This document shows positions 1,947 through 53,238 of a DNA stretch of 64,000 bases, piece after piece. The translations under genes and the position numbers were made by a program. This DNA is from an uncultured Thermoleophilia bacterium. GTDB lineage: Bacteria > Actinomycetota > Thermoleophilia > Gaiellales > Gaiellaceae. The DNA lies in contig CAWGPJ010000002.1 of NCBI GenBank assembly GCA_963824455.1, forward strand, positions 144,664 through 208,663, written 5' to 3'. The first letter of the stretch is position 1, and every line of letters starts with the position of its first letter. The notes beneath the pieces were generated by a model that saw nothing but the letters and a program-made list of their open reading frames with translations, had not been told where the DNA came from and made no database searches.

Positions 1947-2016
1947 CCCGGTTGGGTCAGGAGGGGTTCCGGGGGCGCACCGGGAACATGCAACCGGCTA
2001 CCCTTTGTGAGGACCC

Positions 2017-3960: not shown

Positions 3961-4300
3961 GCTCGGCTCGGGTTCGCGTGGGTGCCCGCGTGCGGGCGGC
4001 CACCGATGTGCTCTGCCCGAGGCGAGCTAGGCTGGGCTCGGGTTCGCGTGGGTGCCCGCGTGCGGGCGGCCACCGATGTGCTCTGCCCGAGGCGAGCTAG
4101 GCTGGGCTCGGGTTCGTGTGGGTGCCCGCGTGCGGGCGGCCACCGATGTGCTCTGCCCGAGGCGAGCTAGGCTGGGCTCGGGTTCGTGTGGGTGCCCGCG
4201 TGCGGGCGGCCACCGATGTGCTCTGCCCGAGGCGAGCTAGGCTGGGCTCGGGTTCGCGTGGGTGCCCGCGTGCGGGCAGCCACCGATGTGCTTTGCCCTG
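3946..4300. repeat. 70-bp tandem direct repeat, 5 copies, beginning inside the last codons of ftsH
   Basis: The unit GGCGAGCTAGGCTGGGCTCGGGTTCGCGTGGGTGCCCGCGTGCGGGCGGCCACCGATGTGCTCTGCCCGA starts at 3951, 4021, 4091, 4161 and 4231, with 0-3 substitutions per copy and no spacers. Confidence 0.95.
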
Positions 4301-4341
4301 GCACCAGGAAGCCTCCGCCGGCCACGGGCGTTGAGGCTTTA

Positions 4342-5277
4342 GTGGGACGTGGGCGGCACTCCGCGGCGCTGCAGCTGCTCCTGGTCGCCGCGCTCTTCGG
4401 CGGGACGTGGCCCGCCGGGAAGGTGGCGGTCGACCACGTGCCCCCGCTCACCGTTGCGACGGCGAGGTTCGTGCTCGCGAGCATCCTCCTCGTCGCGATC
4501 GTCCGTCTGCGCGGCCGCCCGCTTCCCTTCCCCGCCCGCAGCGACCTGCCGCTCGTGCTCGCCCTCGGCCTGACGGGGATCGCGGCCTACCAGGCGTTCT
4601 TCCTGATCGGCCTCGTCCGGACGCCCGCGAGCGACGGCGCCATCCTCGTCCCCGGGCTGATCCCCGTGTTCACGACGCTGCTCGCGTGGCGCATCTACGG
4701 CCAGCGCCCGACCCGGCGGGTCGCGCTCGGGTTCGGGATCGCGATCGTCGGCCTCGTGGTCGTCGTCGATCCCGCCGGCGCGGTCAGCTCGAGCCGGCTC
4801 CTCGGCGACCTGATCCTCGTCGGCGCCGCCGTGTGCTGGGCGGTCTACACGATCCTGGGCCGCTCGGCGCTCGCGCGCTTCGACGCCCTGCTCGCCACCA
4901 CCTACGCCTCGATCGTCGGCGCGCTGATGCTCGCTCCGTTCTCGGTCACCGGCTGGGGGACGCTGGCCCACGCCGGCCGGGCCGCGTGGCTGTCGATCCT
5001 CTACCTCGCCCCGCTCGGGACGGTGCTCGCGTTCGTCCTCTACTACGGCGGCGTGCGCAGGCTCGGGGCGTCCCGGGCCGCCGCGTTCACGCTCCTCGTC
5101 CCCGTCTTCGGCGTGTCGTCGGCGATCCTCGTGCTCGGAGAGTCGCTGCGCGCCGGGCTCGCCGTCGGCGGCGCGATCGTGCTGGCCGGGCTCTGGCTGA
5201 TCCAGCGGCCTGCACGTCAGGCGCCGGCGGCCGCCGCGCCGAGCCCCGCCTCCCACGAGGCCCACAGCCGCGCGTAG
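4342..5277 (+). CDS. EamA/DMT-family transporter
   Basis: About 10 hydrophobic segments and two EamA-like halves (FGGTWPAGKVAV..., LAPLGTVLAFVLYYGGVRRLGASRAAAFTLLVP). The track ORF starts at 4186 inside the repeat array; the in-frame GTG at 4342 is a more plausible start. The start is uncertain. Confidence 0.8.
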   Translation: MGRGRHSAALQLLLVAALFGGTWPAGKVAVDHVPPLTVATARFVLASILLVAIVRLRGRPLPFPARSDLPLVLALGLTGIAAYQAFFLIGLVRTPASDGAILVPGLIPVFTTLLAWRIYGQRPTRRVALGFGIAIVGLVVVVDPAGAVSSSRLLGDLILVGAAVCWAVYTILGRSALARFDALLATTYASIVGALMLAPFSVTGWGTLAHAGRAAWLSILYLAPLGTVLAFVLYYGGVRRLGASRAAAFTLLVPVFGVSSAILVLGESLRAGLAVGGAIVLAGLWLIQRPARQAPAAAAPSPASHEAHSRA

Positions 5278-6950
5278 CGCTCGCCCCGGCGGACGAGCTC
5301 GTTGTGCGACGCCACCTCGACGAGGCGGCCGCCCTCGAGCACGGCGACGCGGTCGGCGCGCTGCGCGGTCGAGAGCCGGTGCGCGATCGTGATCATCGTC
5401 CGGCCCTGCGCCACCGCTGCGAGCGCCCGCTCCACGGCCGCCTCCGTTCGCGGGTCGAGAGCCGAGGTCGCCTCGTCGAGGACGATCACCGCCGGGTCGG
5501 CCAGCGCGACTCGCGCGATCGAGACGAGCTGCCGCTCGCCCGCGGACAGGCGCACGCCGCGCGAGCGCACGTCGGTGTCGAGGCCGCCGGGAAGTCGCGC
5601 GAACCGCTCGAGCGCCTCGATCGCCTCGAGCGCCGCGCGCACCTCGTGGTCGGCGGCGCCGGGCCGGCCGAGCCGAACGTTGTCGGCGATCGAGCCCGAG
5701 AAGAGGTGCCCCTCCTGCGGGACGAAGACGATGCGCCGCCGCAGCTCGTCGTGCCCGACGTCGCGCAGGTCGACGTCCCCGTAGGTCACGACGCCCTCCC
5801 GCGGGTCGTAGAAGCGCACGAGCAGCTTCGCCAATGTCGACTTGCCGGCGCCCGTCGGCCCGACCAGCGCCAGGTGCTCGCCCGCCTCGACCGACAGCGA
5901 GATGTCGGCGGCCGCCGGAGCTCCGCCGTCGTAGGCGAACGTGACCCCGGTCGCGCGCAGGGCGCCCGAGACGGGGAGCGCCGCCGTGCCGCCCTCGACC
6001 GTGACCGGCTCGGCGAGCAGGCCGGCGATCTTCTGCAGCGCCGCCCGCCCCGACTGGAACTCGGTGTACCAGTCGCCGAGCCTTGCGATCGGGTCGAAGA
6101 GCGAGATCAGGTACAGGGCGAACGCGACGATCGTCCCGACCGTGACCCGGCCGTGCCGCTCCAGGTACCCACCGACGACGAGCACCGAGGCCAGAGCGAG
6201 CGACTGCGCAAACGCGATCATCGGGAAGAAGCCGATGTTGACGAGCGAGATCCGGCGCCAGGCGGCGATCTGCGCGCGCGACCGGACCCGGTAGGAGGCG
6301 TAGCGGTCGGTCTCGCGGCGGTACGACTGCAGGACGCGTACGCCGGTCAGTCCTTCCTGGAGCGACGACATCGTCTCCGCGACCCGGTCGCGCAGCGCGA
6401 GAAACGCCGGTCTCGAGTTCCTCCCGTAGCGAAGCGACGACCAGACGAGCAGCGGCACCGGCACGAGCATGACCAGCGACAGGAGCGGTGACAGCGTGAC
6501 GAGGACGACGAGCGTGACGACGAACAGGAGCACCGAGCCCACGACCTCGACCAGCACCATCCGTGTGAACGTCGTCAGCGTCTGCACGTCGTTCGTCAGG
6601 CGCGAGACCAGCACGCCGGCGCGGGTCTCCTCGAAGAACGGCATCGAGAGGGCCTGCAGCTTGTCGAAGGCCGCCACGCGCAGGTCGCCGAGGAACCGCT
6701 CGCCGGCGCGTGCGCTGCAGAGCACGATCACGCGCTCGAGCACCGGCCGAACGAGGACGAGGACGAGGAAGATCCCCGCGGCGACGTTGACGGCGCGGGC
6801 GTTCCCCTTCGAGATGCCCTGATCGATCGCGTACTTCGTGAGCAGCGGCGCTGCGAGCGAGATCGCGGTCGCACCGATCATCGCCACCCCGGCGAGGGCG
6901 ATCGTCCGGCGGTACGGCCGCAGGATCGGCGCGATCTGCTCGCGGATCAC
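5217..6950 (-). CDS. ABC exporter, fused permease/ATPase subunit (second of a heterodimeric pair)
   Basis: This is the C-terminal part of the 1159-aa track ORF. It has 6 TM helices, then Walker A GPTGAGKST, signature LSAGERQ and Walker B VIVLDEATSALD. The GTG start at 6950 overlaps the upstream stop (GTGA). Confidence 0.9.
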   Translation of the reverse strand: MIREQIAPILRPYRRTIALAGVAMIGATAISLAAPLLTKYAIDQGISKGNARAVNVAAGIFLVLVLVRPVLERVIVLCSARAGERFLGDLRVAAFDKLQALSMPFFEETRAGVLVSRLTNDVQTLTTFTRMVLVEVVGSVLLFVVTLVVLVTLSPLLSLVMLVPVPLLVWSSLRYGRNSRPAFLALRDRVAETMSSLQEGLTGVRVLQSYRRETDRYASYRVRSRAQIAAWRRISLVNIGFFPMIAFAQSLALASVLVVGGYLERHGRVTVGTIVAFALYLISLFDPIARLGDWYTEFQSGRAALQKIAGLLAEPVTVEGGTAALPVSGALRATGVTFAYDGGAPAAADISLSVEAGEHLALVGPTGAGKSTLAKLLVRFYDPREGVVTYGDVDLRDVGHDELRRRIVFVPQEGHLFSGSIADNVRLGRPGAADHEVRAALEAIEALERFARLPGGLDTDVRSRGVRLSAGERQLVSIARVALADPAVIVLDEATSALDPRTEAAVERALAAVAQGRTMITIAHRLSTAQRADRVAVLEGGRLVEVASHNELVRRGERYARLWASWEAGLGAAAAGA

Positions 6951-8671
6951 GCCACCCTCGACGCCGGAACGGCCAGCAGCGACCGATACCTCGGCGAGCG
7001 GGCGAGCAGCTCCTCGTGCGTCCCCTGCTCGGTGACGCGCCCGGCCTCGACCAGCGCGACGCGGTCGGCCAGCGCGATCGTCGCCGGCCGGTGGGCGATC
7101 ACGAGCGTCGTTCGCCCGCGCATCACCTCGGCGAGCGCGGCCCGGATCTCGTGCTCCTTCGTCGCGTCGACGGCCGAGGTCGCGTCGTCGAGGATCAGGA
7201 CCTTCGGGTCGGCGAGGATCGCCCGCGCGATCGCGATCCGCTGGCGCTGCCCGCCGGAGAGCGAGAAGCCGCGCTCGCCGAGCATCGTCTCGTACCCCTC
7301 GGGCAGCCGCTCGACGAACTCGTCGGCTCCCGCGAGCCTGGTCGCGCGCTCGATCTCGTCGTCGTCCGCCTCGGGCGCTGCGAGGCCGACGTTCTCGCGG
7401 ACGGTGTCGCCGAAGAGGAACGCGTCCTCGAACACGATGCCGACGCGTTGACGGAGCTCGTCGAGCAGCAGGTCGCGGAGGTCGACGTCGCCGATCGTCA
7501 CCCGGCCGGCACGCGGGTCGTAGAACCGCGCAAGCAGCGCCGCCGCCGTCGACTTCCCCGAGCCCGTGGCGCCGACCAGCGCGAGCGACGTCCCGGCGGG
7601 GATCTCGAGGTCGAACCCGTCGAGAACCGGACGCTCGTCGTCGTAGGAGAACTGCACATCGTCGAAGCGGATCGCCGCGCTCTCCGGAAACGCGCGTGGG
7701 TGCGGCGCCTCGACGACGACCGGCTCGGCGCGCAGCACGTCCGTGACCCGCAGCGCTGCGGCGACCGCGCGCTGGAGCGTCCCGAGCCGCTGCCCGATCG
7801 TCCGCAGCGGGTTCACGAGCAGGGCGAGGTAGAAGCCGAACGCCGCGAACGTGCCGATCGTGATGTCGCCGTCGAGCGCCTGGTGGCCGCCGTACCAGAG
7901 CACGACCAGCATCCCGATCAGCGGGAGCGCCTCGAGGGCGGGCAGGAAGACCGCGTCGACCCCTGCGACGTCGAGCGCGGTGCGTACGACCTCGTCCGAG
8001 CGGTCGCGGAACCGTGCGGACACCGCAGCCTCGGCGCCGAGGCCCTTGACGACGCGGACGCCGGCGATCGACTCCTCGACCAGCGACGTCGCCTCGGCGA
8101 GACGCTCCTGATTCACCTTGGTGCGTTCGGCGTAGCGCTCGGAGTAGCGGCCGAACCCGATGCTGAGCAGCGGCAGCGGCAGCAGCACGGCGAGCGCGAG
8201 GCGCCAGTCGAGCACGAACAGGACGACCGACGTGCCGACGATCGTGAACACGTAGCCGATCGTGTGCCCGATCGAGTCGAACGCCCGGGCCACCAGCTCC
8301 GCGTCGTTCGAAGCCCTGGAGATCAGCTCGCCGGCGCCGACCCGGTCGTGGTAGTGGGCGTCCAGCTCGAGCGCGCGGCGGAAGATCGCGTCGCGGACCT
8401 GGGCGTCCGCGCGGGCCCGGTTCCGGATCGCGAACACGTGCCGGAGCGCTCCGGACGACGCCTCGATCGCGCCGAGCACCACGAGCCCGGCGCACGACCA
8501 GAGGAGCGCGCTGGTGCTCCCGCCGACGACGCCGGCGTCGACGGCGTACTTGATCAGGAGCGGCGCCGCGATCGCGGCGCCCTGCCAGGCGAGCCCGGAG
8601 GCGACCGCGCCGACGATCGACCAGCGCAGCCTCTTCGCGATCACCCCGAGGTAGCGCCAACCACTGTCCAC
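6947..8671 (-). CDS. ABC exporter, fused permease/ATPase subunit (first of pair)
   Basis: TM domain followed by GATGSGKST, LSGGQRQR and LILDDATSAVD. Length 574 aa. Confidence 0.92.
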   Translation of the reverse strand: MDSGWRYLGVIAKRLRWSIVGAVASGLAWQGAAIAAPLLIKYAVDAGVVGGSTSALLWSCAGLVVLGAIEASSGALRHVFAIRNRARADAQVRDAIFRRALELDAHYHDRVGAGELISRASNDAELVARAFDSIGHTIGYVFTIVGTSVVLFVLDWRLALAVLLPLPLLSIGFGRYSERYAERTKVNQERLAEATSLVEESIAGVRVVKGLGAEAAVSARFRDRSDEVVRTALDVAGVDAVFLPALEALPLIGMLVVLWYGGHQALDGDITIGTFAAFGFYLALLVNPLRTIGQRLGTLQRAVAAALRVTDVLRAEPVVVEAPHPRAFPESAAIRFDDVQFSYDDERPVLDGFDLEIPAGTSLALVGATGSGKSTAAALLARFYDPRAGRVTIGDVDLRDLLLDELRQRVGIVFEDAFLFGDTVRENVGLAAPEADDDEIERATRLAGADEFVERLPEGYETMLGERGFSLSGGQRQRIAIARAILADPKVLILDDATSAVDATKEHEIRAALAEVMRGRTTLVIAHRPATIALADRVALVEAGRVTEQGTHEELLARSPRYRSLLAVPASRVA

Positions 8672-17183: not shown

Positions 17184-19691
<2,508 letters not shown>

Positions 19692-19700
19692 AAGCGACCG

Positions 19701-19734
19701 ACCGGTGCCGGGCACCCGGGGGCCCGGCACCGGT
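19701..19734. terminator. Bidirectional stem-loop between convergent clpC and the coiled-coil gene
   Basis: ACCGGTGCCGGGC (19701-19713) pairs perfectly with GCCCGGCACCGGT (19722-19734), giving a 13-bp stem and an 8-nt loop. Confidence 0.6.
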
Positions 19735-19819
19735 GTCCAGTAGACCCGTCCGCGAGTCATGCCCCGTTCCCGGCGACGATTCATCGGCCGGTAACCGACC
19801 GAACTTGGGGACGGGCGTA

Positions 19820-22800
19820 CTAGGCCGAGAGGCGCTCGAGGTAGGCGCACGGCCGGCCGTCGAACGGCAGCGGTGAGCGTCCGAGCCGCGACACGCGCAG
19901 CATCGCGTCCTCGAAGCCCTCGATCTCGACGATCTGGCCGAGGTACGGGGGCGGGCCCTCGACCTCGACGAGCCGGTAGGCGTCGCCGGCCGGGACGAAG
20001 GCGACGTAGGCGTCCGCCTCCTCGCCGGGCTCGCCGGCGGCGCCGGTACGCAGGTGCCAGTCGGCGTCGGTGATCGCCAGGCCGAGCCCGTCGATCGAGC
20101 GGCGCAGCGCGCGGCCGCTCTCGAAGTAGGCCTGCTCGGATGCAGTGAGCCGGCGGGCCAGCTCGGCGAGCCCGTCGCGGATCGCCTGGCCGGTCGCCTC
20201 GGCCGCGGCATCCTCCTGGCCCCGGCGCTCGATCAGGCTGCCGACCTCCTCCTCGAGGCGCGCGCGGAGCTCGTCGAGCTCGGCGCGGCCGGCACTCGAC
20301 CCCGCGACGTGCTCGATGCGATCGACGAGCTCCCCGCGCACCCGATCGAGCTCGGCGCGGCGCTCGGCCTCGTGGTGCTCCGACTGCTCGGCGACCGACG
20401 TCTCGAGCCGGGCGAGCCGGTCGGCGAGCGCCGCCGCCTCGCTGCGGCCCGTCTCGGACGCCTCCTCGAGCCGGCGCGAGTGCGATGCAAGCTCCTGGCA
20501 GACCGCGTCGAGCTCTGCGCCCTGCGCCTCTGCCGCGCCGGCCAGCGACGCCTCGACGGCGTCGAGCCGGCCGCCGAGCGACGAGCTCTCGCGGAGCGAC
20601 GCTTCGACGTCGTCGAGTCGCGCACGAAGCGCTGCCGTGTCCTGCAGCGCGGCTTCGATCCCGTCGAAGCGCTCGCGTACCGAGGCCTTGTCGCTGCGCC
20701 GCTTCTCTGCCGCCTCCTCGACCTTGCGCACCTGGGCCTCGAGCTCGCTGCGAATCGCGTCGAGTGCCGCGCCGTGAGCGGAGGCCGTCTCGGCCGTCGC
20801 GTTCGCGAGCTCGTCGACCCGGTGGAGCGGAGCGAGCTCTTCGAGGCGATGCGTGACCTGTTCGAGCCGCCTGTTGCCCCAGTCGACGCCGTGTGCGAGC
20901 TCGTCCACGCGGCTCGCGACGTTGTCGACCCGCTCGGCAGAGGCCGTGGCGGCGAGCTCGCCTTCGAGCCGGTCGAGGCGCTCGCGCAGACGTCCGGAGA
21001 GCGCGTCGAGCTCGTTGCGCAGCTCGTCGTCGGGAGAGGCGACCTCGTCGAGCCGGACGGCGAGCGCCGCCACGGCGTCGCGCCACTCGTCGTCCGAGCC
21101 TGCCGAGTCGATCTGGACGGCGAGCGCGGCGACCGCCTCGCGCCACTCCTCGCTCGGTGGGGGCAGCGCCTCGAAGCGGTCGCGCAGCTCGTCGAGCCCG
21201 CGGCGGACCTCGTCGAGGTGGTCGTGCGACGGGCGGTCCGCGAGAGCGCCCGACAGCTGCTCGAGACGAGCGAAGAGCTCCTCCGACGCGCCGGCGAGCG
21301 AATCGAGCCGCTCGTCCATGCGGCGCCCGGTGTCGTCGGCGGCGTCGAGGCGACCGGAGAGGCGTTCGACGGCCGAACGTGCCTCGCCGGTCCCGTGCGC
21401 GACCTCGTCGACACGCTCCCAGAGCGAGTCGACGGCCTGACGCCACTCGTCGGTCGGTACCGGCAGCGACTCGACCGCGCCACGCAGGGAGTCCAGGTCG
21501 TTGCGGAGCGCGTCCGCCTGCTCGCGGCCGGCTGCTCCCGCGATGCGCTCCGCGAGCTGCTCGAGACGGGCGGTGAAGCTGTCCGACACCTGCTCGACGC
21601 GCCGGCTCAGCATGTCCAGGTCGTCGGTCGGCGGGGGGAGGGCGTCGAGTGCGGCGCGGAGGTCGTCGAGCTCGCGGCGCAGGCGCTCGGCCTGCTCGCG
21701 CGGCGCGGCCTGGGCGAGCGCTTCGTGGACGTGCTGCAGGCGGTCGCCGAGGCGCTCGTCGAGCTCGTGGATGCGGCCGGACAGCTGATCGATGTCCCCG
21801 GCCGGCGACGGGAGCGCGTCGACCGCGTCCCGCAGTTCGTCGAGCTCGGCGCGGAGGGCGTCGGCCTGGCCGCGTCCGGCGGCGGCGGCCTCGGCGCTGT
21901 CGCTGACCTGCTGGAGCCGGGCCGAGAAGCCCTCGGCGAGCTGCTCGACGCGATGGGCGAGCGCCTGCACGTCGTCGGTCCGGGCAGGGAGGGCGTCGAG
22001 TGCGGCGCGGAGGTCGTCGAGCTCGCGGCGGAGACGCTCGGCCTGCTCGCGCGTGGCCGCTCCGGCCAGGTGGTCTGTGACGTGCTGGAGCCGTGCGTTC
22101 ACGTTCTCGTCGAGCTCGCTCAGGCGTCGCGTCAGCCCATCGATCTGCTCCGCGGTCGCCGGCAGCGCCTCGAGGGCGGTGCGCAGCTGGTCGAGCTCGT
22201 GGCGGAGCGCGTCGGCCTGGTCGCGTCCGGCAGCGGCGGCCTCGGCGCTGTCGCTGACCTGCTGGAGCCGGGCCGAGAAGCCGTCGGCGAGCTGCTCGAC
22301 GCGACGGGCGAGCGAGTCGAGCTGCGTGTCGAGCCCGCGCTCGGTGTCGTGCTCCTCGTCGAGCTGAGACGTGAGGCGCTCGAGGGCGGCCTGCGACTCG
22401 GTCGAGCCCGCCGCCAGCTCCTCGACGCGACCGCCCAGCTCGGCGACCGCCTCCCGCCACTCCTCGGAGGGCTGCGGGAGGGCGTCCAGCCGTGCTGCCA
22501 GCGCTGCGATCTCCGCGCGAAGCTCCGCGAGGGCGTCGTCCGCGGGCGGCGCGGCTGCGGCCGGGGGCGGCCCGGCATCGGCCGCGGGAGCGACCTCGTG
22601 GCGCACGGGCTGCGGGCTGCTCGGCCGCCACATCTCGACCGGCGACTGCGGTTCGGGCGACTGCGGTTCGGGCGGCTGCGGTTCGGGCGCCGGGGCCGGG
22701 CCACGCCCGGCGTCGCCGCCCGCAAGCGCGTCGGAGGCGACGCGCAGCCCCGGTAGCTCGGGCTCCGTGGTCTCGCGCCTGCTCGGATCGAAGCTCGAAG

Positions 22801-23278
22801 CCTGGTCCTCGAGCGCGTCCCAGAGGCGGAGCCGTGACAGCTTCCCCTGTGAGACGAGGATCTCGCCCAGCTTGCGCCCGCTCAGCTTCTGCTCCTCGAG
22901 GGCGTCCTCGAGCTGCCCGCTCGTGATGAAGCCCTTCTCGACGAAGATCTCGCCGATCGGGCGCTTCGACAGCTGGCCCGACTCGTTGCGACCCCACTCG
23001 TCGAGCATGCGGGCGAGCTCGCGCACGGCGGCATTCGCCTCACCGTCCCCGTCGGCCCCGTGCGTCAGGTTCTCGGCGCGCTGGGACATCAGCGCGCTCT
23101 CGAGGTCGGCGCGCGTCACGCCGAACTGGGACATCAGGATCTCGCCGAGCCGTGCGCCGGTCGTCTGCTGCTCCTCGAGGGCAAGCTCGAGCTGGGCCTC
23201 GGTGATCAGGCCCCGTTCGACGATGAGCGCCCCGATCAGGCGGGACGAGATGGGCGCAGACGCGTCCACACGACCCAT
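19820..23278 (-). CDS. large coiled-coil protein with two N-terminal MshEN/T2SSE_N-like modules (function unknown)
   Basis: A 1152-aa ORF with strong GC3 bias. Order: N-terminal (R/K)LGEIL..G....L...L..Q motif pairs, a PEPQS repeat linker, about 780 aa of Ala/Glu/Leu/Arg-rich repeats with a 117-aa periodicity, and a small C-terminal domain. Confidence 0.8.
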   Translation of the reverse strand: MGRVDASAPISSRLIGALIVERGLITEAQLELALEEQQTTGARLGEILMSQFGVTRADLESALMSQRAENLTHGADGDGEANAAVRELARMLDEWGRNESGQLSKRPIGEIFVEKGFITSGQLEDALEEQKLSGRKLGEILVSQGKLSRLRLWDALEDQASSFDPSRRETTEPELPGLRVASDALAGGDAGRGPAPAPEPQPPEPQSPEPQSPVEMWRPSSPQPVRHEVAPAADAGPPPAAAAPPADDALAELRAEIAALAARLDALPQPSEEWREAVAELGGRVEELAAGSTESQAALERLTSQLDEEHDTERGLDTQLDSLARRVEQLADGFSARLQQVSDSAEAAAAGRDQADALRHELDQLRTALEALPATAEQIDGLTRRLSELDENVNARLQHVTDHLAGAATREQAERLRRELDDLRAALDALPARTDDVQALAHRVEQLAEGFSARLQQVSDSAEAAAAGRGQADALRAELDELRDAVDALPSPAGDIDQLSGRIHELDERLGDRLQHVHEALAQAAPREQAERLRRELDDLRAALDALPPPTDDLDMLSRRVEQVSDSFTARLEQLAERIAGAAGREQADALRNDLDSLRGAVESLPVPTDEWRQAVDSLWERVDEVAHGTGEARSAVERLSGRLDAADDTGRRMDERLDSLAGASEELFARLEQLSGALADRPSHDHLDEVRRGLDELRDRFEALPPPSEEWREAVAALAVQIDSAGSDDEWRDAVAALAVRLDEVASPDDELRNELDALSGRLRERLDRLEGELAATASAERVDNVASRVDELAHGVDWGNRRLEQVTHRLEELAPLHRVDELANATAETASAHGAALDAIRSELEAQVRKVEEAAEKRRSDKASVRERFDGIEAALQDTAALRARLDDVEASLRESSSLGGRLDAVEASLAGAAEAQGAELDAVCQELASHSRRLEEASETGRSEAAALADRLARLETSVAEQSEHHEAERRAELDRVRGELVDRIEHVAGSSAGRAELDELRARLEEEVGSLIERRGQEDAAAEATGQAIRDGLAELARRLTASEQAYFESGRALRRSIDGLGLAITDADWHLRTGAAGEPGEEADAYVAFVPAGDAYRLVEVEGPPPYLGQIVEIEGFEDAMLRVSRLGRSPLPFDGRPCAYLERLSA

Positions 23279-23299
23279 ATCGGCAATCCCTCGTCCGAG

Positions 23300-24502
23300 C
23301 TATAGGTCCGGAAGCTGCCAGGTCTCGGCACGGATCAGCGGCACGACCGCGCCGCTGCGCGTGACGGCGTCGACCGACACCCCGGCCCCGCCGATCATGA
23401 AGTCGGTATGGACCGAAGAGACGTTCACGCCTTCGATTCGGCCGCCCTCGACCGCCTCGGCGTAGGCGTCGCCGTAGGCGATGTGACAGGTCGCGTTCTC
23501 GTCGAACAGGGTGTCGAAGAACGTGGTTTCCGTCCGGCCGACGCGTGACGTCCCGTCGACGAGCGCGACCTCGCCGAGGGCGGCGGCATGCTCGTCGGTC
23601 GCCAGCTGGCCGCGGATCACGTCCGCGCCCTCGTCCGCGGCGACCTCGACGATCCGTCCACCGGCGAAGCGCACGCGGAGCCCCTTGACGATCGTGCCGT
23701 AGATCGACAGCGGCATCGTGGCGGCCACGACACCCTCCGTTCGGCGCGCATCGGGCGTCGTGTAGACCTCCTCGGTCGGCATGTTCGCGACGAAGGTGAC
23801 GCCGTCGACGGTCTCGGACTCGACGCCCATCCAGCGCGACTGCGGCAGCAGCCCGACGGTCAGGTCCGTGCCGGGGCCCGTGAAGTGCAGCGCATCGATC
23901 TCGAGCGCCTCGAGCGCGGCCGCCCGGCGCCCGAGCATGTCGATGTGCGAGCGCCAGGCCGCGGCAGGATCGGGCTCGTCGAGCCGCACGCAGTGCTCGA
24001 CGAGGGCCCAGAGGCGGTCGACGTCGGGCTCGCCGAAGATCTGCCTCGCCCAGCCGGCGTTCGGGACCCCGACGACGGTCCAGTTGGTCAGCTGCTCGGT
24101 CGTCTGACGCGAGGCCTCCTTCGCGAGCTCGATCATCCGTGCCTTGCCCACGCGCTCGCCGGGGAGGTCCGCGAGCAGGCCGGGCTCGGCGTCTCCCGTC
24201 AGGGCGACGACGGCCGCGTGCTCGTCCCCGAACATGCGCTCCCGTGTCAGGAGCCACGGCGGCGTCCAGGACAGCACCTCGTCGGCTGCACCGGACTCGA
24301 TCAGTGCGCGGCGGATGTGCGGATCGACGTAGCGGACGTCGACGTAGCGTGCCCCAGCGCGATACGCGGCCCGGGCGACGGTGCGCGCGAAGGCGGCGTG
24401 CTCGAGCCCGGCGACGACGTCCACCAGCTGCCCCTGCTGCACGTTCGCGCCGATTCCGACGACGAGCTCGGCGTAGCGCTCCTCCGGCGACCGCGACGTC
24501 AT
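23300..24502 (-). CDS. M29-family aminopeptidase (AmpS/aminopeptidase T type), paralog 1
   Basis: ERYAELVVGIGANVQQGQ, NWTVVGVPNAGWA, ANMPTEEVYTTP, LFDENATCHIAYG and VHTDFMIGG. The ATG at 24502 overlaps the paralog-2 stop (ATGA). Confidence 0.88.
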   Translation of the reverse strand: MTSRSPEERYAELVVGIGANVQQGQLVDVVAGLEHAAFARTVARAAYRAGARYVDVRYVDPHIRRALIESGAADEVLSWTPPWLLTRERMFGDEHAAVVALTGDAEPGLLADLPGERVGKARMIELAKEASRQTTEQLTNWTVVGVPNAGWARQIFGEPDVDRLWALVEHCVRLDEPDPAAAWRSHIDMLGRRAAALEALEIDALHFTGPGTDLTVGLLPQSRWMGVESETVDGVTFVANMPTEEVYTTPDARRTEGVVAATMPLSIYGTIVKGLRVRFAGGRIVEVAADEGADVIRGQLATDEHAAALGEVALVDGTSRVGRTETTFFDTLFDENATCHIAYGDAYAEAVEGGRIEGVNVSSVHTDFMIGGAGVSVDAVTRSGAVVPLIRAETWQLPDL

Positions 24503-25698
24503 CCCGGCAGCTGCCAGACGTCGTCGCGAAGCAGGGGCACCACGCGGCCGTCGCGGGTCACACCGTCGACGTCGACGTCGGGCCCGCCGATCATGAAGTC
24601 GGTGTGGATGTTCGACACGTTGATGCCGTCGTCCGGTTCGGTGCCCTCGTGGCCGACGCCGATCGCGGCGCCGTAGGCGATGTGACAGGTCGCGTTCTCG
24701 TCGTAGAGCGTGTCGAAGTACACGAGCCCGGTCTGCCCGACTCGGGACGTGCCGTCGACGAGCGCCACCTCGCCGAGGCGCGCCGCGTTGTCGTCGACCT
24801 GGATCTCGGCCCGGACGATGTCGGCTCCACGCGTCGCCTGCACGTCGACGATCCTGCCGCCGTCGAAGGTCACCTGGAGATCCTCGATCACGTCGCCGGC
24901 GCGTGCGAGCGGCCTGGTCGACCTGACGACGCCCTCGGTGCGGCACGCGTCGGGCGTCGCGAACACCTCCTCGGTCGGCATGTTCGCCACGTAGGCGTGG
25001 CCGTCGGCCGTCCGGAAGAGCGCGGAGGCGAAGCGCGAGCGCTCGTGCACCCCGATGACGAGGTCGGTGCCCGGGCCGCGGTAGGCGAGCCGGTCGAGCC
25101 CGAGCGCGTTCAGCGAGCGCGCCCGGCGGTCGAGCCGGTCCATGTGCCTCCGCCAGGCCTCGACCGGGTCGTCCTCGTCGAGACGCGTGCAGAACGCGAC
25201 CGCCTCCCACAACCGCTCGACATCGGGCTCGCCGAACACCTGCTGCGCCCAGCCTGCGTTCGGGAAGGCGACACCGGTCCAGTTGAACGCGTTCCGCGTC
25301 ACGAGGCCAACGTGCGTCTTCCGCAGTTCGATCGGCTGCGCGCGGCCGACGCGCGCGCCGTCGAGATCGGCGAGAAGGCGGGGCTCGGGATCGCCGGTCG
25401 TCGCGATCAGCGCGTTGCCGGCCATCGCCTCGGCCCGCTCGATCTGCCACCGCGGCGAGTGCTCGAGCGTCTCGTCCGGCCCGAGCTCGATCATCGCCCG
25501 CCGAACATGCGGGTCGGCGTAGTGAACGTCGACGTAGCGCGCTCCCGCGCCGTAGGCCTGGCGTGCGAGCGCCCGGGCGAGCGGCGCATGCTCGACCTGC
25601 GTCCCGATGAAGACGGTCTGGCCGGCCGAGACGTTCGCACCCACCCGCACCGCCACCGAGGCATAGCGCTCGAGGCGGCTTACGTCTTCAGTTGCCAG
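24499..25698 (-). CDS. M29-family aminopeptidase, paralog 2 (start codon uncertain, possibly CTG)
   Basis: It carries the same motif set (LERYASVAVRVGANV, ANMPTEEVFATP, LYDENATCHIAYG, IHTDFMIGG). No ATG, GTG or TTG lies upstream of the conserved LERYA segment; CTG is at 25698 and the next GTG is at 25656. Confidence 0.8.
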   Translation of the reverse strand: MATEDVSRLERYASVAVRVGANVSAGQTVFIGTQVEHAPLARALARQAYGAGARYVDVHYADPHVRRAMIELGPDETLEHSPRWQIERAEAMAGNALIATTGDPEPRLLADLDGARVGRAQPIELRKTHVGLVTRNAFNWTGVAFPNAGWAQQVFGEPDVERLWEAVAFCTRLDEDDPVEAWRRHMDRLDRRARSLNALGLDRLAYRGPGTDLVIGVHERSRFASALFRTADGHAYVANMPTEEVFATPDACRTEGVVRSTRPLARAGDVIEDLQVTFDGGRIVDVQATRGADIVRAEIQVDDNAARLGEVALVDGTSRVGQTGLVYFDTLYDENATCHIAYGAAIGVGHEGTEPDDGINVSNIHTDFMIGGPDVDVDGVTRDGRVVPLLRDDVWQLPG

Positions 25699-26897
25699 TC
25701 GTCCTCCCGCAGGATCGGGACCGTCCTCCCGTCTCGCGTCACGCCGTCGACGTCGACGTCGGGCCCGCCGATCATGAAGTCGGTGTGGATGTTCGACACG
25801 TTGGCCCCCCGGGCCCGCAGCTCGTCCGGCTCGAGGCCCTCGAGCGTCTCCTCGCCGAAGACCACTGCGGTGCCGTAGGCGATGTGGCAGGTGGCGTTCT
25901 CGTCGAACAGCGTGTTGAAGAACGTCAGTCCGGTACGGCCGACGCGCGAGGTCCCGTCGACGAGCGCGACCTCCCCGAGCCGGTTCGCGTACTCGTCGAT
26001 CGCCATCTGGCTGCGCACGGCCTCGACGCTCGCGCTCGCCCGCACGTCGACCGCCTCGCCCTTCTCGAAGGTCATCTCGAGGTCGCGGACGATCGCTCCG
26101 CCCAGGCTCAGGGGCCTTGTCGACCGGACCGACCCCTCCGTCCGCCGCCAGTCGGGCGCGACGAACACCTCCTCGGTCGGCATGTTCGGCACGTGGTCGA
26201 CGCCGGTCGCCGTGGTCGCTCCGCCGCCGGCCCACCTGATGCCCGGCAGGAGGCCGATCGTGAGATCGGTGCCCGGCCCGCGGAAGTGCAGGCGGTCGAG
26301 GTCGAGCGCGTCGAGCTGCCGTGCCCGGCTGCGGAGCTTCGCGCTGTGCGCCCGCCAGGCGGCGACCGGATCGGCCTCGTCGAGACGCACGGTGTCCGCG
26401 ATCACCTCCCAGAGCCGCTCGACGTCGGGCTCGCCGAGCACCTGCGTCGCCCAGCCGGCGTTGGGGAAGGCGGCGATCGTCCAGCTGACCGTTCGGGCGG
26501 TCTGCGCCCCGTGCAGCGTCTCGAGGTAGGCGCGCGGGACCGCGCGGCCGATGCGGGCCGGATCGAGGTCGCTCATCAGGTCCGGTTCCGGATCGCCGGC
26601 GATCATCACCAGCGCTGCGTAGTCGCCCATCGCCCTCGCCTGCACGACCCGCCACTCCGGCGTGTCGACGAGGACCTCGTCGTCAGCGTGCTGGATCATC
26701 GCGCGCCGCACGTGCTGGTCGCCGTAGGTCACGTCGACGTAGCGCGCTCCGGCCTCGTACCCCGAGCGCGCGATCGCCCGAGCGAGCTCAGCGTGCTCCA
26801 CGAGCCCGACGACGAAGAGCGTCTGCCCCGGCTGTACGTTCGCGCCGACGTGGACGATCAGCTCGGCGTACCGCTCGAGGCGATCCATCGCGACCAC
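25680..26897 (-). CDS. M29-family aminopeptidase, paralog 3
   Basis: MDRLERYAELIVHVGANVQPGQ, PNMPTEEVFVAP, LFDENATCHIAYG, IHTDFMIGGPDVDVDG. Confidence 0.88.
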   Translation of the reverse strand: MVAMDRLERYAELIVHVGANVQPGQTLFVVGLVEHAELARAIARSGYEAGARYVDVTYGDQHVRRAMIQHADDEVLVDTPEWRVVQARAMGDYAALVMIAGDPEPDLMSDLDPARIGRAVPRAYLETLHGAQTARTVSWTIAAFPNAGWATQVLGEPDVERLWEVIADTVRLDEADPVAAWRAHSAKLRSRARQLDALDLDRLHFRGPGTDLTIGLLPGIRWAGGGATTATGVDHVPNMPTEEVFVAPDWRRTEGSVRSTRPLSLGGAIVRDLEMTFEKGEAVDVRASASVEAVRSQMAIDEYANRLGEVALVDGTSRVGRTGLTFFNTLFDENATCHIAYGTAVVFGEETLEGLEPDELRARGANVSNIHTDFMIGGPDVDVDGVTRDGRTVPILREDDWQLKT

Positions 26898-26913: not shown

Positions 26914-27498
26914 TCACGTGTCGAGCGGGACGTCGTCCCAGGTCGACCCTAACCCGCAGAGCCAGTTGAGGGCGTGATGGCGCTCGGCCGCGATCGCGTG
27001 GGCCTCCGCGTGCTGCTCCGGCGACAGGTGGCGGTAGACCTTGCCGTAGGCGGGGAAGTCTCCGCGCAGCGGTGCGGGGAGCAGGTCCTGCTCGAAGCCG
27101 CGCATCGCGGTCGCCGCGATCAGCTGGTCGAACGTCGCGTAGCGCGGCGGCAGCTCGACCTCTCCGCGGGTCTGCAACGTCGCGGTCCGCGCACGCCAGT
27201 GCCAGAGGCGCGCCGACTGCCGCTCGAGATCGACGTCCTGCGGCTCGCGCAGGCGGGCGCCCTCGAGCCCCTTGCCGGTCACCGCGGCGGTCTCGAACGG
27301 GCGGTCGTACGGTGGCAGCTCGAGCAGCTCGAGCGCCCAGAGGAGCGTCCCGAGCGCCTCGCCGCGCCAGACCGCGGCCGCCGCGGCCGGGTCGGTCGAC
27401 CCGTCCGCGACGTGCTGGAGGCCGGCCCGGACCTCGCCCTGGAGCGTGCGGCAGCGCTCGACCACCTCGTTCTGCGGGCGGAGCTTCGGCCGCGGCAC
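26914..27498 (-). CDS. conserved hypothetical protein (possibly DUF4272-like)
   Basis: This is the C-terminal 194 codons of a longer track ORF and has good GC3 bias. The tail AERHHALNWLCGLGSTWDDVPLDT resembles my memory of DUF4272. The GTG start at 27498 is a guess. Confidence 0.5.
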   Translation of the reverse strand: MPRPKLRPQNEVVERCRTLQGEVRAGLQHVADGSTDPAAAAAVWRGEALGTLLWALELLELPPYDRPFETAAVTGKGLEGARLREPQDVDLERQSARLWHWRARTATLQTRGEVELPPRYATFDQLIAATAMRGFEQDLLPAPLRGDFPAYGKVYRHLSPEQHAEAHAIAAERHHALNWLCGLGSTWDDVPLDT

Positions 27499-27609
27499 GC
27501 CCGTGAATGTACTTGCCTTTCCGGCGACGCCCCTTCGGTTCGCGCCCGGGGACAGATCGTTCCGAAAGCGGCACAGCTGCCGTCGGGCGGCGCCGCTACC
27601 GTCACTGCC

Positions 27610-28962
27610 GTGGCGAAGGCGGCGGCCGTCCAGCACGCGTGCACCGAGTGCGGCACGGCTTCGACCCGCTGGCTCGGGCGCTGCCCGGGCTGCGGCGAGT
27701 TCGGCACGATGGTGGCCGAGGCGCTCCCTGCACGGGGACAGCGGGGGCGTGCCCACGCCTCCGAGCCCGCTCGGCGGCCGCCGCTCCGCCTCGTCGACGT
27801 CGTGGTCGAGGAGAGCGAGCGGCTCTCGACGGGCGTGCCCGAGCTCGACCGCGTGCTGGGCGGCGGGCTCGTTCCGGCCTCGCTCGTCCTGGTCGGCGGT
27901 GAGCCGGGCGTCGGGAAGTCGACGCTGCTCCTGAGCGCCCTCGGCGCGATGTCGGCCGGACGGCGGCGCGCGCTGCTCGTCACGGGCGAGGAGTCGGTCG
28001 CCCAGGTCAAGCTGCGTGCCGCGCGGCTCGGCGGCTGCGATGCGGTCGAGATCCTGGCCGAGACCGAGCTCGAGCACGTCTGCGACACGCTCGAGCGCGA
28101 GCGGCCGGCGGTGTGCGTCGTCGACTCGGTGCAGACGCTTTGGTCGCAGGAGGTCGGCTCGGCGCCCGGGTCGGTCTCGCAGGTGCGCGAGGCGGCGGCG
28201 CGCCTGCTGCGCGTGGCCAAGGAGAGCGGCGTCGCCGTGTTCCTCGTCGGCCACGTGACGAAGGACGGGGCGGTGGCCGGGCCGCGTGTGCTCGAGCACC
28301 TCGTCGACTGCGTCCTGCAGTTCGAGGGCGACCGCTACCGCGCCCACCGCGTGCTGCGCGCGGTGAAGAACCGCTTCGGCTCGACGAACGAGATCGGCGT
28401 CTTCGAGATGACCGGCTCGGGCCTCGTCGGCGTGCCCGAGCCGTCCGAGGTGTTCGGCCGCTCGGAGGGCGGGGAGGTGGGCGCCGCGGTCACCTGCACG
28501 CTCGAGGGGACGCGGCCGCTGCTCCTCGAGGTGCAGGCGCTCGTCGCGCCGAGCGATCTCGCGCTGCCGAGGCGCGTCGGCACCGGTGTCGACCCGAAGC
28601 GCCTGGCGATGATCGTCGCGGTGCTCGCCAGGCACGCCGGCCTGCCGCTCGGCGGCGCGGACGTCTTCGTCAACGTGGCCGGAGGGGTCCGGATCGAGGA
28701 GCCGGGCGGCGACCTCGGGATCGCGCTCGCGATCGCCTCGGCCGCGAAGGGGTCGCCCGTGCGCGAGGGTGTGGCGGCGTTCGGCGAGATCGGGCTCACC
28801 GGGCGCCTGCGGGCCGCCACGCAGGCCGACCGCCGAGCGGCGGAGTGTCGCAAGTTCGGGCTCGGTTCGGTGCTCGCCCCGGCCGGGACGGCGGGAGCGG
28901 TGCTCGAGGCCGACACCCTGCGCCGCGCGCTCGCCGCCGCGCTGGGCGAGAACCCCTCGTGA
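27610..28962 (+). CDS. radA: DNA repair protein RadA
   Basis: N-terminal zinc ribbon CTECG...RCPGCGEFG, Walker A GGEPGVGKSTLL, KNRFGSTNE, and a Lon-like C-terminal domain. GTG start at 27610. Confidence 0.93.
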   Translation: MAKAAAVQHACTECGTASTRWLGRCPGCGEFGTMVAEALPARGQRGRAHASEPARRPPLRLVDVVVEESERLSTGVPELDRVLGGGLVPASLVLVGGEPGVGKSTLLLSALGAMSAGRRRALLVTGEESVAQVKLRAARLGGCDAVEILAETELEHVCDTLERERPAVCVVDSVQTLWSQEVGSAPGSVSQVREAAARLLRVAKESGVAVFLVGHVTKDGAVAGPRVLEHLVDCVLQFEGDRYRAHRVLRAVKNRFGSTNEIGVFEMTGSGLVGVPEPSEVFGRSEGGEVGAAVTCTLEGTRPLLLEVQALVAPSDLALPRRVGTGVDPKRLAMIVAVLARHAGLPLGGADVFVNVAGGVRIEEPGGDLGIALAIASAAKGSPVREGVAAFGEIGLTGRLRAATQADRRAAECRKFGLGSVLAPAGTAGAVLEADTLRRALAAALGENPS

Positions 28963-30930: not shown

Positions 30931-31073
30931 GCCGTAGGCTCGACGGAGGCTCACCGAGAGCGGAGGCGTCGGCTTGCCGACGCTGGAGCGGATCTGAACA
31001 TGAGCCGTAGGCTCGCCGGAGGCTCACCGAGAGCGGAGGCGTCGGCTTTGCCGACGCTGGAGCGGATATGAGC
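30928..31073. repeat. 73-bp tandem duplication (2 copies) spanning the HAD stop codon to the ispF start codon
   Basis: TGAGCCGTAGGCTCG(A/C)CGGAGGCTCACCGAGAGCGGAGGCGTCGGCTT(T)GCCGACGCTGGAGCGGAT... occurs at 30928 and again at 31001. Confidence 0.9.
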
Positions 31074-31541
31074 GTGCGGGTCGGTGTCGGGGTCGACGCC
31101 CACGCGCTCGCGGACGGCGTGCCGCTGGTGCTCGGCGGCGTGGAGCTCGACCATCCGCGCGGGCTTGCGGGCCACTCCGACGGCGACGTGCTCGCGCATG
31201 CGCTCGTCGACGCGGTTCTCGGCGCTGCGGGGCTCGGCGACATCGGCTCGCTGTTCCCGTCGGGCGACGAGCGCTACCGCGGCGTCTCCTCGCTCGACCT
31301 GCTCGCCGAGGCCTACGCGCAGGTGCGCGCGGCCGGCTGGACGCTCGTCAACGCCGACTGCGTGCTGATCGGCGAAGCGCCGCGGATCGCGCCGCACCGA
31401 GCCGAGATGCGCCGCCGGCTGTCCTCGGCGCTCGGCGGCGGCGAGGTCAACGTCCGTGCGACGACGACCGACGGCCTCGGGTTCACCGGGCGGGGCGAAG
31501 GGCTCGCGGCGCACGCCGTGGCGCTGCTCGCGCGCGCGTAG
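31068..31541 (+). CDS. ispF: 2-C-methyl-D-erythritol 2,4-cyclodiphosphate synthase
   Basis: VGVGVDAHAL, GLAGHSDGDVLAHALVDA, GDIGSLFP. Confidence 0.95.
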   Translation: MSVRVGVGVDAHALADGVPLVLGGVELDHPRGLAGHSDGDVLAHALVDAVLGAAGLGDIGSLFPSGDERYRGVSSLDLLAEAYAQVRAAGWTLVNADCVLIGEAPRIAPHRAEMRRRLSSALGGGEVNVRATTTDGLGFTGRGEGLAAHAVALLARA

Positions 31542-53117: not shown

Positions 53118-53133
53118 GCGGAGTGGAGGCCGC

Positions 53134-53238
53134 TTACCAGGTGAAGTTGAGTGGGTCGCACGATGCGATGCCGAGGACCGCGGCGAGGACGATCAGCACG
53201 ATCACCACGACCACGAGCTTGGCGTTCCACTTGAGCAT
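53134..53238 (-). CDS. 34-aa micro-ORF with a lipoprotein-like signal (not in the ORF track)
   Basis: MLKWNAKLVVVVIVLIVLAAVLGIASCDPLNFTW has a basic n-region, a hydrophobic core and a lipobox-like IAS|C. A GGAAGGA Shine-Dalgarno lies about 8 nt upstream. The ORF ends 17 nt before the GGDEF/HD-GYP start. Confidence 0.4.
   Translation of the reverse strand: MLKWNAKLVVVVIVLIVLAAVLGIASCDPLNFTW

Follow-up and report, generated by a model that had tools for sequence, protein, structure and literature searches.

Only two receptor modules for cyclic di-GMP (c-di-GMP) are truly widespread. MshEN_N is one of them, and its characterized outputs are enzymes, namely pilus or secretion ATPases and glycosyltransferases. 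For MshEN_N(1-62) on its own, c-di-GMP binding was measured at 0.35 µM (Wang et al. 2016, PMC5013675), and fusions of the module to diverse or unknown domains account for more than 10,000 proteins in many architectures (PMC5013675). Proteins with 'MshEN_N only' architectures listed there (Suppl. Table 4) include (MshEN_N)2 in cce_1044, (MshEN_N)2-CheX, (MshEN_N)2-REC-ACyc and MshEN_N-EpsG; E. coli NfrB, through its MshEN domain, is placed under 'Glyco_trans_2_3 - MshEN'. In T. thermophilus PilF, the GSPII-B domain (K167/L196 at motif position 1) binds c-di-GMP at 6 nM; the value is 2 nM for its K167L variant and ~460 nM for GSPII-C (P335). The PilF authors widened the consensus to (R/K/L)LG... 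(PMC11731258). Non-binding MshEN homologues are also documented, in XpsE (PMC5013675) and PilF GSPII-A (PMC11731258). Here we describe a gene at positions 19820-23278 (minus strand) of a 64,000-nucleotide stretch, hereafter the window, of contig CAWGPJ010000002.1 from an uncultured Thermoleophilia bacterium of the Gaiellales. Its product joins two MshEN_N modules to a long helical rod and a small C-terminal β-domain, and is probably a c-di-GMP effector with a structural rather than an enzymatic output. An earlier note, made from the letters of the window alone, had drawn attention to the gene, and we follow its claims below.

Two tandem MshEN_N modules at the N-terminus

The open reading frame (ORF) starts at an ATG, includes its stop codon within 19820-23278 and encodes 1152 residues, as the earlier note, which gave no strand, had it and as the ORF list and translation confirm (125 kDa; acidic, with an isoelectric point of 4.6). 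Its G+C content at third codon positions (GC3) is 0.91, similar to that of other genes in the window (~72% G+C), the plus-strand translation of the same interval holds many stops, and a protein search returned 106 homologues, the best of them 58% identical. We conclude that the gene is real and that it is conserved; no other ORF in the window has an MshEN_N module. Two such modules lie at the N-terminus of the protein:

23081-23239, minus strand: MshEN_N module 1 (residues 14-66), predicted c-di-GMP site 1, from NF053729, PDB matches and four AlphaFold2 (AF2) helices at residues 8-72.
22802-22960, minus strand: MshEN_N module 2 (residues 107-159), predicted c-di-GMP site 2, from the top NF053729 stretch (positions 1-53 of 53), the 5HTL match and Foldseek.

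Module 1 reads LIGALIVERGLITEAQLELALEEQ-QTTGA-RLGEILMSQFGVTRADLESALMSQ and module 2 reads PIGEIFVEKGFITSGQLEDALEEQ-KLSGR-KLGEILVSQGKLSRLRLWDALEDQ; both peptides had been reported before and were found verbatim, each with the layout 24+5+24 (53 residues). The NCBIfam model NF053729 ('cyclic di-GMP-binding domain-containing protein, MshE-related', 53 positions) matched the protein in two stretches with 101.6 bits (E 1.4e-29; cut-off 38), and the module 1 fragment alone reached 57.7 bits; the NfrB and EpsG models of NCBIfam matched the same residues locally. A phmmer search of PDB sequences with residues 1-172 returned T. thermophilus PilF (6f8l, 3.2e-16, all PilF GSPII domains), c-di-GMP-bound V. 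cholerae MshE (5HTL, E 4.4e-8) and the crystal structures of PilF GSPII-B, as well as PilB (5zfr), which matched residues 9-66.

This was corroborated by the predicted fold. In a full-length AF2 model built with a 46-sequence alignment, each module forms four helices with a predicted local distance difference test score (pLDDT) of 83-93. Foldseek matches of this model in the PDB were led by nine entries, all c-di-GMP-bound MshE or PilF GSPII-B, with root-mean-square deviations (rmsd) of 1.0-2.6 Å over 56-60 columns, 37-45% identity and a probability of 1.00 (E-values are inflated by the 1152-residue query). The match of module 2 to 5HTL had an rmsd of 1.0 Å, 42% identity and a probability of 1.00, and 8PDK/8PFA, which share the four-helix-bundle fold, were likewise among the top matches. 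Two MshEN_N modules are present by sequence, profile and fold.

The earlier note had called these modules complete, and this part of its claim did not stand. After each module the AF2 model shows helix or disorder alone, and the α/β subdomain MshEN_C (T2SSE_N1) is absent; the modules are the MshEN_N four-helix subdomain alone and not the complete MshEN of ~145 residues. A Pfam T2SSE_N (PF05157) match had been expected for the N-terminus, and none was found in the protein at E≤1, because the MshEN_C/T2SSE_N1 subdomain is absent; this result does not refute the identity of the modules, which the NCBIfam model and the searches by PDB sequence and by fold all support. DUF4388 (PF14332), which we take to be the Pfam model of the PATAN domain, matched a 170-residue N-terminal fragment with 37 bits (cut-off 25) across residues 14-95; only positions 51-121 of its 122 align, and the match probably reflects an MshEN_N-like helical module embedded in the DUF4388 model.

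Two further long open frames overlap the gene, at 19877-22756 on the plus strand (960 codons) and at 18957-22997 on the minus strand (1346 codons), and one of them reaches 0.86 in GC3. Both arise because the Ala/Glu/Leu/Arg coding sequence is repetitive and GC-rich. Gene callers annotated antisense ORFs of this kind in place of the real gene in a frameshifted relative (locus L056).

The predicted c-di-GMP sites

We mapped the modules onto MshE residues 9-61 and scored as contacts the (R/K/L)-L-G start, L17, L21 and Q24 of each half-motif and the Gly at the helix turn. Each module is identical to MshE at 23 of 53 positions, and at 12 of the 14 ligand-contact or helix-turn positions. The earlier note had given the motif as a pair of RLGxx... 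halves; the 24+5+24 layout held, and the departures from the motif are these:

Module 1, half-motif a, position 1: L14 here, R9 in MshE.
Module 2, half-motif a, position 1: P107 here, R9 in MshE.
Module 2, half-motif b, position 1: K136 here, R38 in MshE.
Module 1, half-motif b, turn: F52-G53 here, G47 in MshE; a one-residue shift of the turn glycine.

Three of these four substitutions, L, P and K at motif position 1, occur in proven c-di-GMP binders. Such changes are tolerated, as the binding of PilF GSPII-B, its K167L variant and GSPII-C shows, and the absence of MshEN_C matters little for binding in principle, because the isolated MshEN_N(1-62) binds and tandem (MshEN_N)2 proteins are known. 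When we applied the published relaxed pattern [RKPN]hGxxhhxx[GAS]hh..., every position fitted in half-motif 2a only, with misfits at position 1 of 1a, positions 10-11 of 1b and position 11 of 2b.

Ninety-seven of the 107 family proteins retain the two modules. Positions G3, L17, L21, Q24, G32, L46, L50 and Q53 are 96-100% conserved family-wide (82-100% if L31 is included), and in module 1 the conservation of G3, L17, Q24, G32 and L50 is 100%. Position 30, equivalent to R38 of MshE, carries R in 83% of module 1 copies; in module 2 it is R in 74% and K in 26%. The residues at position 1 are themselves family features, Leu in 94% of module 1 and Pro in 98% of module 2, and the family also conserves an Arg directly before each module and a family-specific Arg at position 43. 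Invariant columns of the full-length alignment concentrate in the two modules and at the C-terminal end, and module 2 is the best-conserved part of the protein, with 17 invariant columns within G109-Q159. Finally, the changes associated with loss of binding in XpsE (G11V, L29R, R38G, G40L, L54H, L58C and Q61V) have no equivalent in either module. This conservation at ligand-contact positions in both modules is strong, though indirect, evidence of ligand binding, and from it we strongly infer that both modules bind a ligand, most likely c-di-GMP.

Linker and helical rod

The sensor modules are followed by a flexible linker and a rod that makes up most of the protein:

22544-22780, minus strand: disordered Pro/Ala-rich linker (residues 167-245) with PEPQS repeats; pLDDT ~33, no secondary structure, 27% Pro.
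20045-22540, minus strand: helical rod (residues 247-1078, ~830 residues), from AF2 secondary structure and a repeat hidden Markov model (HMM).
21461-22314, minus strand: internal tandem duplication with a 351-nt period (117 residues, two repeat units), 2.4 copies, 78% identical, from Tandem Repeats Finder.
20054-20206, minus strand: conserved last rod segment (residues 1025-1075) with R1034, G1036 and L1065 invariant in alignments; helix with pLDDT 95-98 in an AF2 fragment model.

The PEPQS linker and the Ala/Glu/Leu/Arg-rich helical region of the earlier note were both borne out, the former by a 15-nt tandem repeat (3.3 copies, 97% identity; 22641-22689, Tandem Repeats Finder) that encodes PEPQS and the latter by composition. 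The first part of the rod (residues 247-813) consists of ~22 short helices of 16-32 residues. An iterated HMM of the repeat unit found strong copies starting at residues 332, 390, 448, 507, 565 and 665, with a spacing of 58-59 residues and weaker copies flanking them; each unit is a helix, a Gly/Ala break, a second helix and 'ALPxP'. The 351-nt duplication corresponds to the protein repeats at residues 332-623, and because its period recurs 2.4 times at 78% DNA identity, part of the array is a recent duplication. The second part of the rod is modeled as three long helices (821-897, 902-994 and 998-1078). Hydrophobic residues recur in the rod with a period of 3.45-3.6 residues, which fits amphipathic helices that pack on one another or on other chains. 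Among homologues the rod is poorly conserved and variable in length, and gain and loss of repeats probably explains this variation.

No P-loop and no transmembrane segment were found in the protein, and the Walker A pattern [AG]x4GK[ST] is absent throughout; together with the missing T2SSE Pfam match, this agrees with the earlier claim that the protein is no ATPase. Its comparison with Scy, FilP and DivIVA, which are actinobacterial coiled-coil cytoskeletal proteins, fared less well: the rod is a Pro-punctuated array of ~58-residue helix-break-helix units followed by three long helices, and DivIVA was not among the best 25 of 53 Pfam matches at E≤1. Membership in the SMC/Rad50 group was rejected, with rod-only scores of 78 vs 567 bits (TIGR02168) and 68 vs 700 bits (Rad50) and with no Walker A motif or ABC head. 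Filament (PF00038; 23.4 vs 40 bits) was rejected in view of a rod that ALPxP breaks about every 58 residues, EzrA (23.5 vs 39.6 bits) as a compositional match to the rod, and an apolipoprotein profile match on the same ground. Baculo_PEP_C, NPV_P10, Occludin_ELL and DUF4388 scored above their whole-protein cut-offs, and DUF1664 did so with no single significant stretch. Matches to SMC, Rad50, EzrA, Filament, apolipoprotein and similar models are confined to the rod, and we regard them as compositional; nearly all are far below curated cut-offs.

A candidate new domain at the C-terminus

19823-20017, minus strand: C-terminal β-domain (residues 1088-1152); AF2 pLDDT ~90, four to five strands, invariant residues in the alignment.

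The small C-terminal domain noted earlier, ending ...SRLGRSPLPFDGRPCAYLERLSA, was recovered. An AF2 model of the last 128 residues (39-sequence alignment) has a mean pLDDT of 90.6 and shows a long helix followed by the 60-residue β-domain of four to five strands. Seven residues are invariant (P1111, S1135, P1136, P1138, D1140, R1142 and C1144); the motif SPLPxDxRxC is invariant, and the invariant residues form a loop and the start of the last strand. The domain had no match among PDB sequences and, among the 39 members scanned, no Pfam family and no NCBIfam family. A Foldseek search with the fragment model gave no significant match (best E 0.77, TM-score 0.3), though the model included the preceding helix, which possibly weakened the search. 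Judged by these profile and fold comparisons, the β-domain appears to be an undescribed domain.

With a profile of the β-domain alone, 716 clusters (50% identity level) were matched at E≤1e-10 and 1452 at the looser threshold of E≤1e-3, and in the clusters found the domain is always C-terminal. Complete family members range from ~210 to ~1650 residues and keep both termini: among the matches listed, two modules and the β-domain occur together in proteins of 364-849 residues, and one module and the β-domain in proteins of 212-495 residues. One cluster with a short rod is named Thermoleophilia bacterium. Because complete proteins with short rods keep both ends, the core of the family is the sensor plus the β-domain, and the length of the spacer evolves freely.

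Still shorter matches to the β-domain (58-125 residues) were considered as stand-alone proteins and mostly rejected: two of the three inspected (L056 and L057) are probably gene fragments in frameshift-fragmented assemblies, long-read metagenome-assembled genomes (MAGs). In several such assemblies (MFD/ERZ250...) that carry family members, lon, dinB and an aldehyde dehydrogenase gene are likewise split into two or three ORFs:

L003, 2717-4704: split housekeeping gene.
L056, 157-1839: split housekeeping gene.
L057, 2759-3470: split housekeeping gene.

These splits indicate frameshift errors, and such errors make 'short' family members look more numerous in protein databases than they are. The third match (P0291, at 6001-6294 of locus L055, on a 2.25-Mb contig) is apparently a genuine stand-alone β-domain of 97 residues or slightly more, with the motif SPLPGDRRRC. 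It is preceded by an OmpR/HisKA two-component pair (3826-5867) and followed after 7 nt by a gene for a secreted Peptidase_M23 protein of 652 residues (6301-8259).

Distribution of the family

We scanned one genome per GTDB species (185,579 genomes) with the pattern SPLP[LF]DxRPC, derived from a 9-sequence subset; the pattern misses motif variants, and the taxonomic range is therefore a lower bound. All 50 confirmed loci lie in MAGs labeled Thermoleophilia, Gaiellales, Gaiellaceae, Gaiella sp. or 'uncultured Actinomycetes', with one locus per MAG except in one MAG that has two near-identical contexts. Named homologues from the protein search likewise belong to Gaiellaceae, Gaiella or Thermoleophilia, and the nearest loci are in Thermoleophilia/Gaiellaceae MAGs, where the β-domain is 95-97% and ClpC 98-99% identical.

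Homologues are annotated as 'hypothetical' or carry the automatic JGI label 'chromosome segregation ATPase', and no source offers an informative annotation. We found no publication on the family in the literature on MshEN with coiled coils or on c-di-GMP in Thermoleophilia, in keeping with the earlier statement that the protein matches no described family.

Gene neighborhood

The features that flank the gene are as follows:

23300-26897, minus strand: three tandem Peptidase_M29 genes (Pfam E 1e-115 to 6e-125), directly upstream of the gene on the same strand.
23287-23292, minus strand: Shine-Dalgarno-like GAGGGA, read from the sequence, 8 nt before the ATG and within the 21-nt gap after the last M29 gene.
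19701-19734, no strand assigned: GC-rich hairpin of ~15 bp, CACCGGUGCCGGGCC...GGUGCCCGGCACCGGU, with no T-run, between the convergent stops of the gene and clpC; centroid -32 kcal/mol, z = -3.0.

The 21-nt gap and the three same-strand M29 genes had been described before and hold; Peptidase_M29 is the thermophilic aminopeptidase family, and the three genes are paralogues arranged head-to-tail. The only promoter-like (sigma-70-like) site in a promoter scan lies at 26924-26896, upstream of the first M29 gene, and the three M29 genes and the gene studied here possibly form one operon. On the other side, clpC (17184-19691, plus strand) is convergent with it. A scan for consensus terminators found nothing between the two genes because the hairpin lacks a T-run; the hairpin is likely a bidirectional terminator.

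Two neighborhoods recur. In the clade of the window (type A, 13 loci), the order is radA, a small ORF in some loci, two or three M29 genes, the gene studied here, and then clpC and lysS on the opposite strand; two or three M29 copies are present in 13 of 13 loci, and the gene follows them by 21-41 nt. In type B (31 loci, with proteins ~30% identical), dinB, a β-lactamase gene, lon, hxlR and sometimes a HisKA_3/GerE pair precede the gene, and everything from lon to the gene is encoded on one strand; in a few loci the flank shows just the two-component pair. At least eight further loci have neither context.

In the window and in loci L001, L003, L004 and L017-L046, a major AAA+ protease gene adjoins the family gene in both clades, clpC convergently in that of the window and lon-hxlR usually upstream on the same strand in the other. 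This proximity may reflect housekeeping regions, coincidence or a functional hint. Other housekeeping genes in the window encode FtsH (2011-3960), RadA (26974-28962) and IspF (YgbB; 31011-31541), all on the plus strand. A Thermoleophilia MAG locus (L002) shares the radA and ispF neighbors, has a ClpC that is 98% identical, and also carries carD and ispD; the shared neighbors and ClpC place the window in Gaiellales.

The window further encodes a GGDEF/HD-GYP enzyme, which the earlier note had placed at 51327-53117. Its GGDEF domain (residues 262-411) and HD_5 domain of the HD-GYP type (440-603) were found, in an ORF that spans 51327-53192 on the minus strand. The first ~260 residues have no assigned domain, and the gene encodes the sole c-di-GMP enzyme among the ORFs scanned with Pfam, which cover part of the window. 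A linkage to the gene studied here was considered and rejected, as the two lie 28 kb apart and no such enzyme is annotated in the four related loci whose gene tables were inspected. The enzyme shows that the organism has c-di-GMP enzymes, not that they are linked to this protein.

Proposed function and alternatives

On balance, the domain content of the protein makes it probable that it is a cytoplasmic, non-enzymatic c-di-GMP effector composed of a sensor, a rod and a docking domain, and that it serves as a c-di-GMP-gated scaffold or tether. Each N-terminal four-helix bundle is predicted to hold one c-di-GMP between the halves of its 24+5+24 motif; the contacts would be made by the conserved Leu triangles, two Gln residues and the backbone of the Gly residues, as they are in MshE of V. 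cholerae and in the GSPII-B domain of T. thermophilus PilF. The Pro-rich linker would connect this sensor flexibly to the amphipathic rod of ~830 residues, which would probably self-associate and act as a spacer of freely evolving length, and the C-terminal β-domain would dock the rod onto a partner by way of its SPLPxDxRxC loop. The level of c-di-GMP would then switch the N-terminal end between conformations or partners and so control assembly, localization or recruitment, which would make the protein a second-messenger-gated scaffold or tether specific to Gaiellales.

Several observations weigh against this proposal. Neither module has the canonical Arg at position 1 of its first half-motif, the α3-α4 turn of module 1 carries a family-conserved Phe-Gly in place of Gly, and the MshEN_C subdomain that strengthens binding in PilF GSPII-B is missing. 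The rod has a pLDDT of 45-80, and the monomer model does not tell self-packing from packing between chains; the scaffold or tether role and the self-association of the rod are read from the architecture. The neighborhood, moreover, gives no consistent functional partner.

Alternatively, the modules may be degenerate GSPII/MshEN-like bundles that, like XpsE and PilF GSPII-A, no longer bind c-di-GMP and serve protein-protein interaction only, leaving a structural rod independent of any second messenger. The replaced position-1 Arg in 1a (Leu) and 2a (Pro), the shifted Gly in 1b, the lack of both MshEN_C and a Pfam T2SSE_N match, and the precedent of documented non-binding homologues (PMC5013675, PMC11731258) all speak for such a loss. 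However, the substitutions present are those of proven high-affinity binders, and the equivalents of G11, L29, R38, G40, L54, L58 and Q61 are intact, most of them 96-100% conserved in ~100 homologues and the R38 equivalent conserved at the frequencies given above. If no ligand were bound, contact-site conservation of this kind in both modules would be difficult to account for, and we consider a loss of binding unlikely. Less probable again is a role as an adaptor or regulator of cytoplasmic proteolysis, in which c-di-GMP would be linked to ClpC, Lon or the aminopeptidases and the β-domain would dock on a protease or a substrate. In 13 loci a distance of 21-41 nt separates the gene from three preceding M29 genes, and it is convergent with clpC; in the 31 loci of the other clade it typically lies downstream of lon-hxlR, which amounts to two different AAA+ protease neighbors. 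Yet these neighbors differ by clade, the gene is only convergent with clpC, and clpC-lysS and lon, as housekeeping genes, belong to conserved regions, so that their proximity may be incidental; in addition, no domain resembles a known adaptor, and at least eight loci have neither context.

The long Ala/Leu/Glu/Arg-rich helical region, the weak SMC, Rad50, Filament and EzrA matches and the JGI 'chromosome segregation ATPase' labels could instead suggest a member of the DivIVA/Scy/FilP cytoskeleton families or an SMC/Rad50-type chromosome-segregation ATPase. This is the most improbable of the readings considered: every score is far below its curated cut-off, the protein has neither Walker A nor an ABC head, DivIVA is not among the best 25 of 53 Pfam matches at E≤1, and the Pro-punctuated rod is not a continuous coiled coil. 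Absent ATPase motifs and sub-threshold scores refute both kinds of membership.

The c-di-GMP-gated scaffold or tether could be carried further, with much less confidence. In this more speculative form, the protein would be the first MshEN-based effector with a purely structural output, a single-copy, self-assembling, c-di-GMP-gated rod or tether, found so far only in Gaiellales, whose β-domain positions a partner and whose length is tuned by gain and loss of repeats; c-di-GMP would thereby directly control a cytoskeleton-like element in Actinomycetota. We regard this as possible and somewhat doubtful.

Gaiellales are abundant in soil and almost entirely uncultured, and to our knowledge essentially nothing has been reported on their cell biology. 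By joining the sensor to a rod of variable length and a small new domain, this family would bring structural or scaffolding output under c-di-GMP control. With more than 1400 clusters at 50% identity the family is large, and it was found only in Gaiellales/Thermoleophilia. The protein is thus a concrete candidate c-di-GMP effector for the order, with a putative new domain whose seven invariant residues are open to direct mutation. As fusions of MshEN_N to unknown domains are already known in principle, it is a lead rather than a conceptual surprise, and a testable one, for c-di-GMP signaling and cell organization in an abundant, uncultured actinobacterial order.

Comparison with known systems

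The protein resembles Scy, FilP and DivIVA in being very long, acidic, helical, Ala/Glu/Leu/Arg-rich and actinobacterial, and plausibly in acting as a self-assembling scaffold. It differs from them in having no significant profile match to these families, in a rod built of Pro-broken ~58-residue repeats, in a nucleotide-sensor domain that those proteins lack, and in having been found only in Gaiellales/Thermoleophilia.

With the 'MshEN_N only' proteins it shares the minimal 53-residue module, used as a portable sensor that is sometimes in tandem and serves unrelated outputs; among the architectures examined in Suppl. Table 4 of PMC5013675, none has the long helical rod or the β-domain, and the output of the protein described here would be non-enzymatic. 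V. cholerae MshE (5HTL; PMC5013675) has the same 53-residue 24+5+24 motif pair and a four-helix bundle that superposes at ~1 Å rmsd. In contrast to the protein described here, which has two tandem MshEN_N modules, MshE continues into MshEN_C and a T2SSE ATPase, and it has Arg at position 1 of the first half-motif where the two modules have Leu or Pro. PilF (PMC11731258) likewise carries its c-di-GMP modules in tandem within one polypeptide, with 37-41% identity to ours at an rmsd of 1.0-2.0 Å, and shows that modules with K, L or P at motif position 1 can bind in the nM to sub-µM range. The PilF modules, however, retain their C-terminal subdomain, and the output they regulate is a hexameric pilus ATPase, whereas the two modules of the Gaiellales protein are coupled to a rod and a small β-domain.

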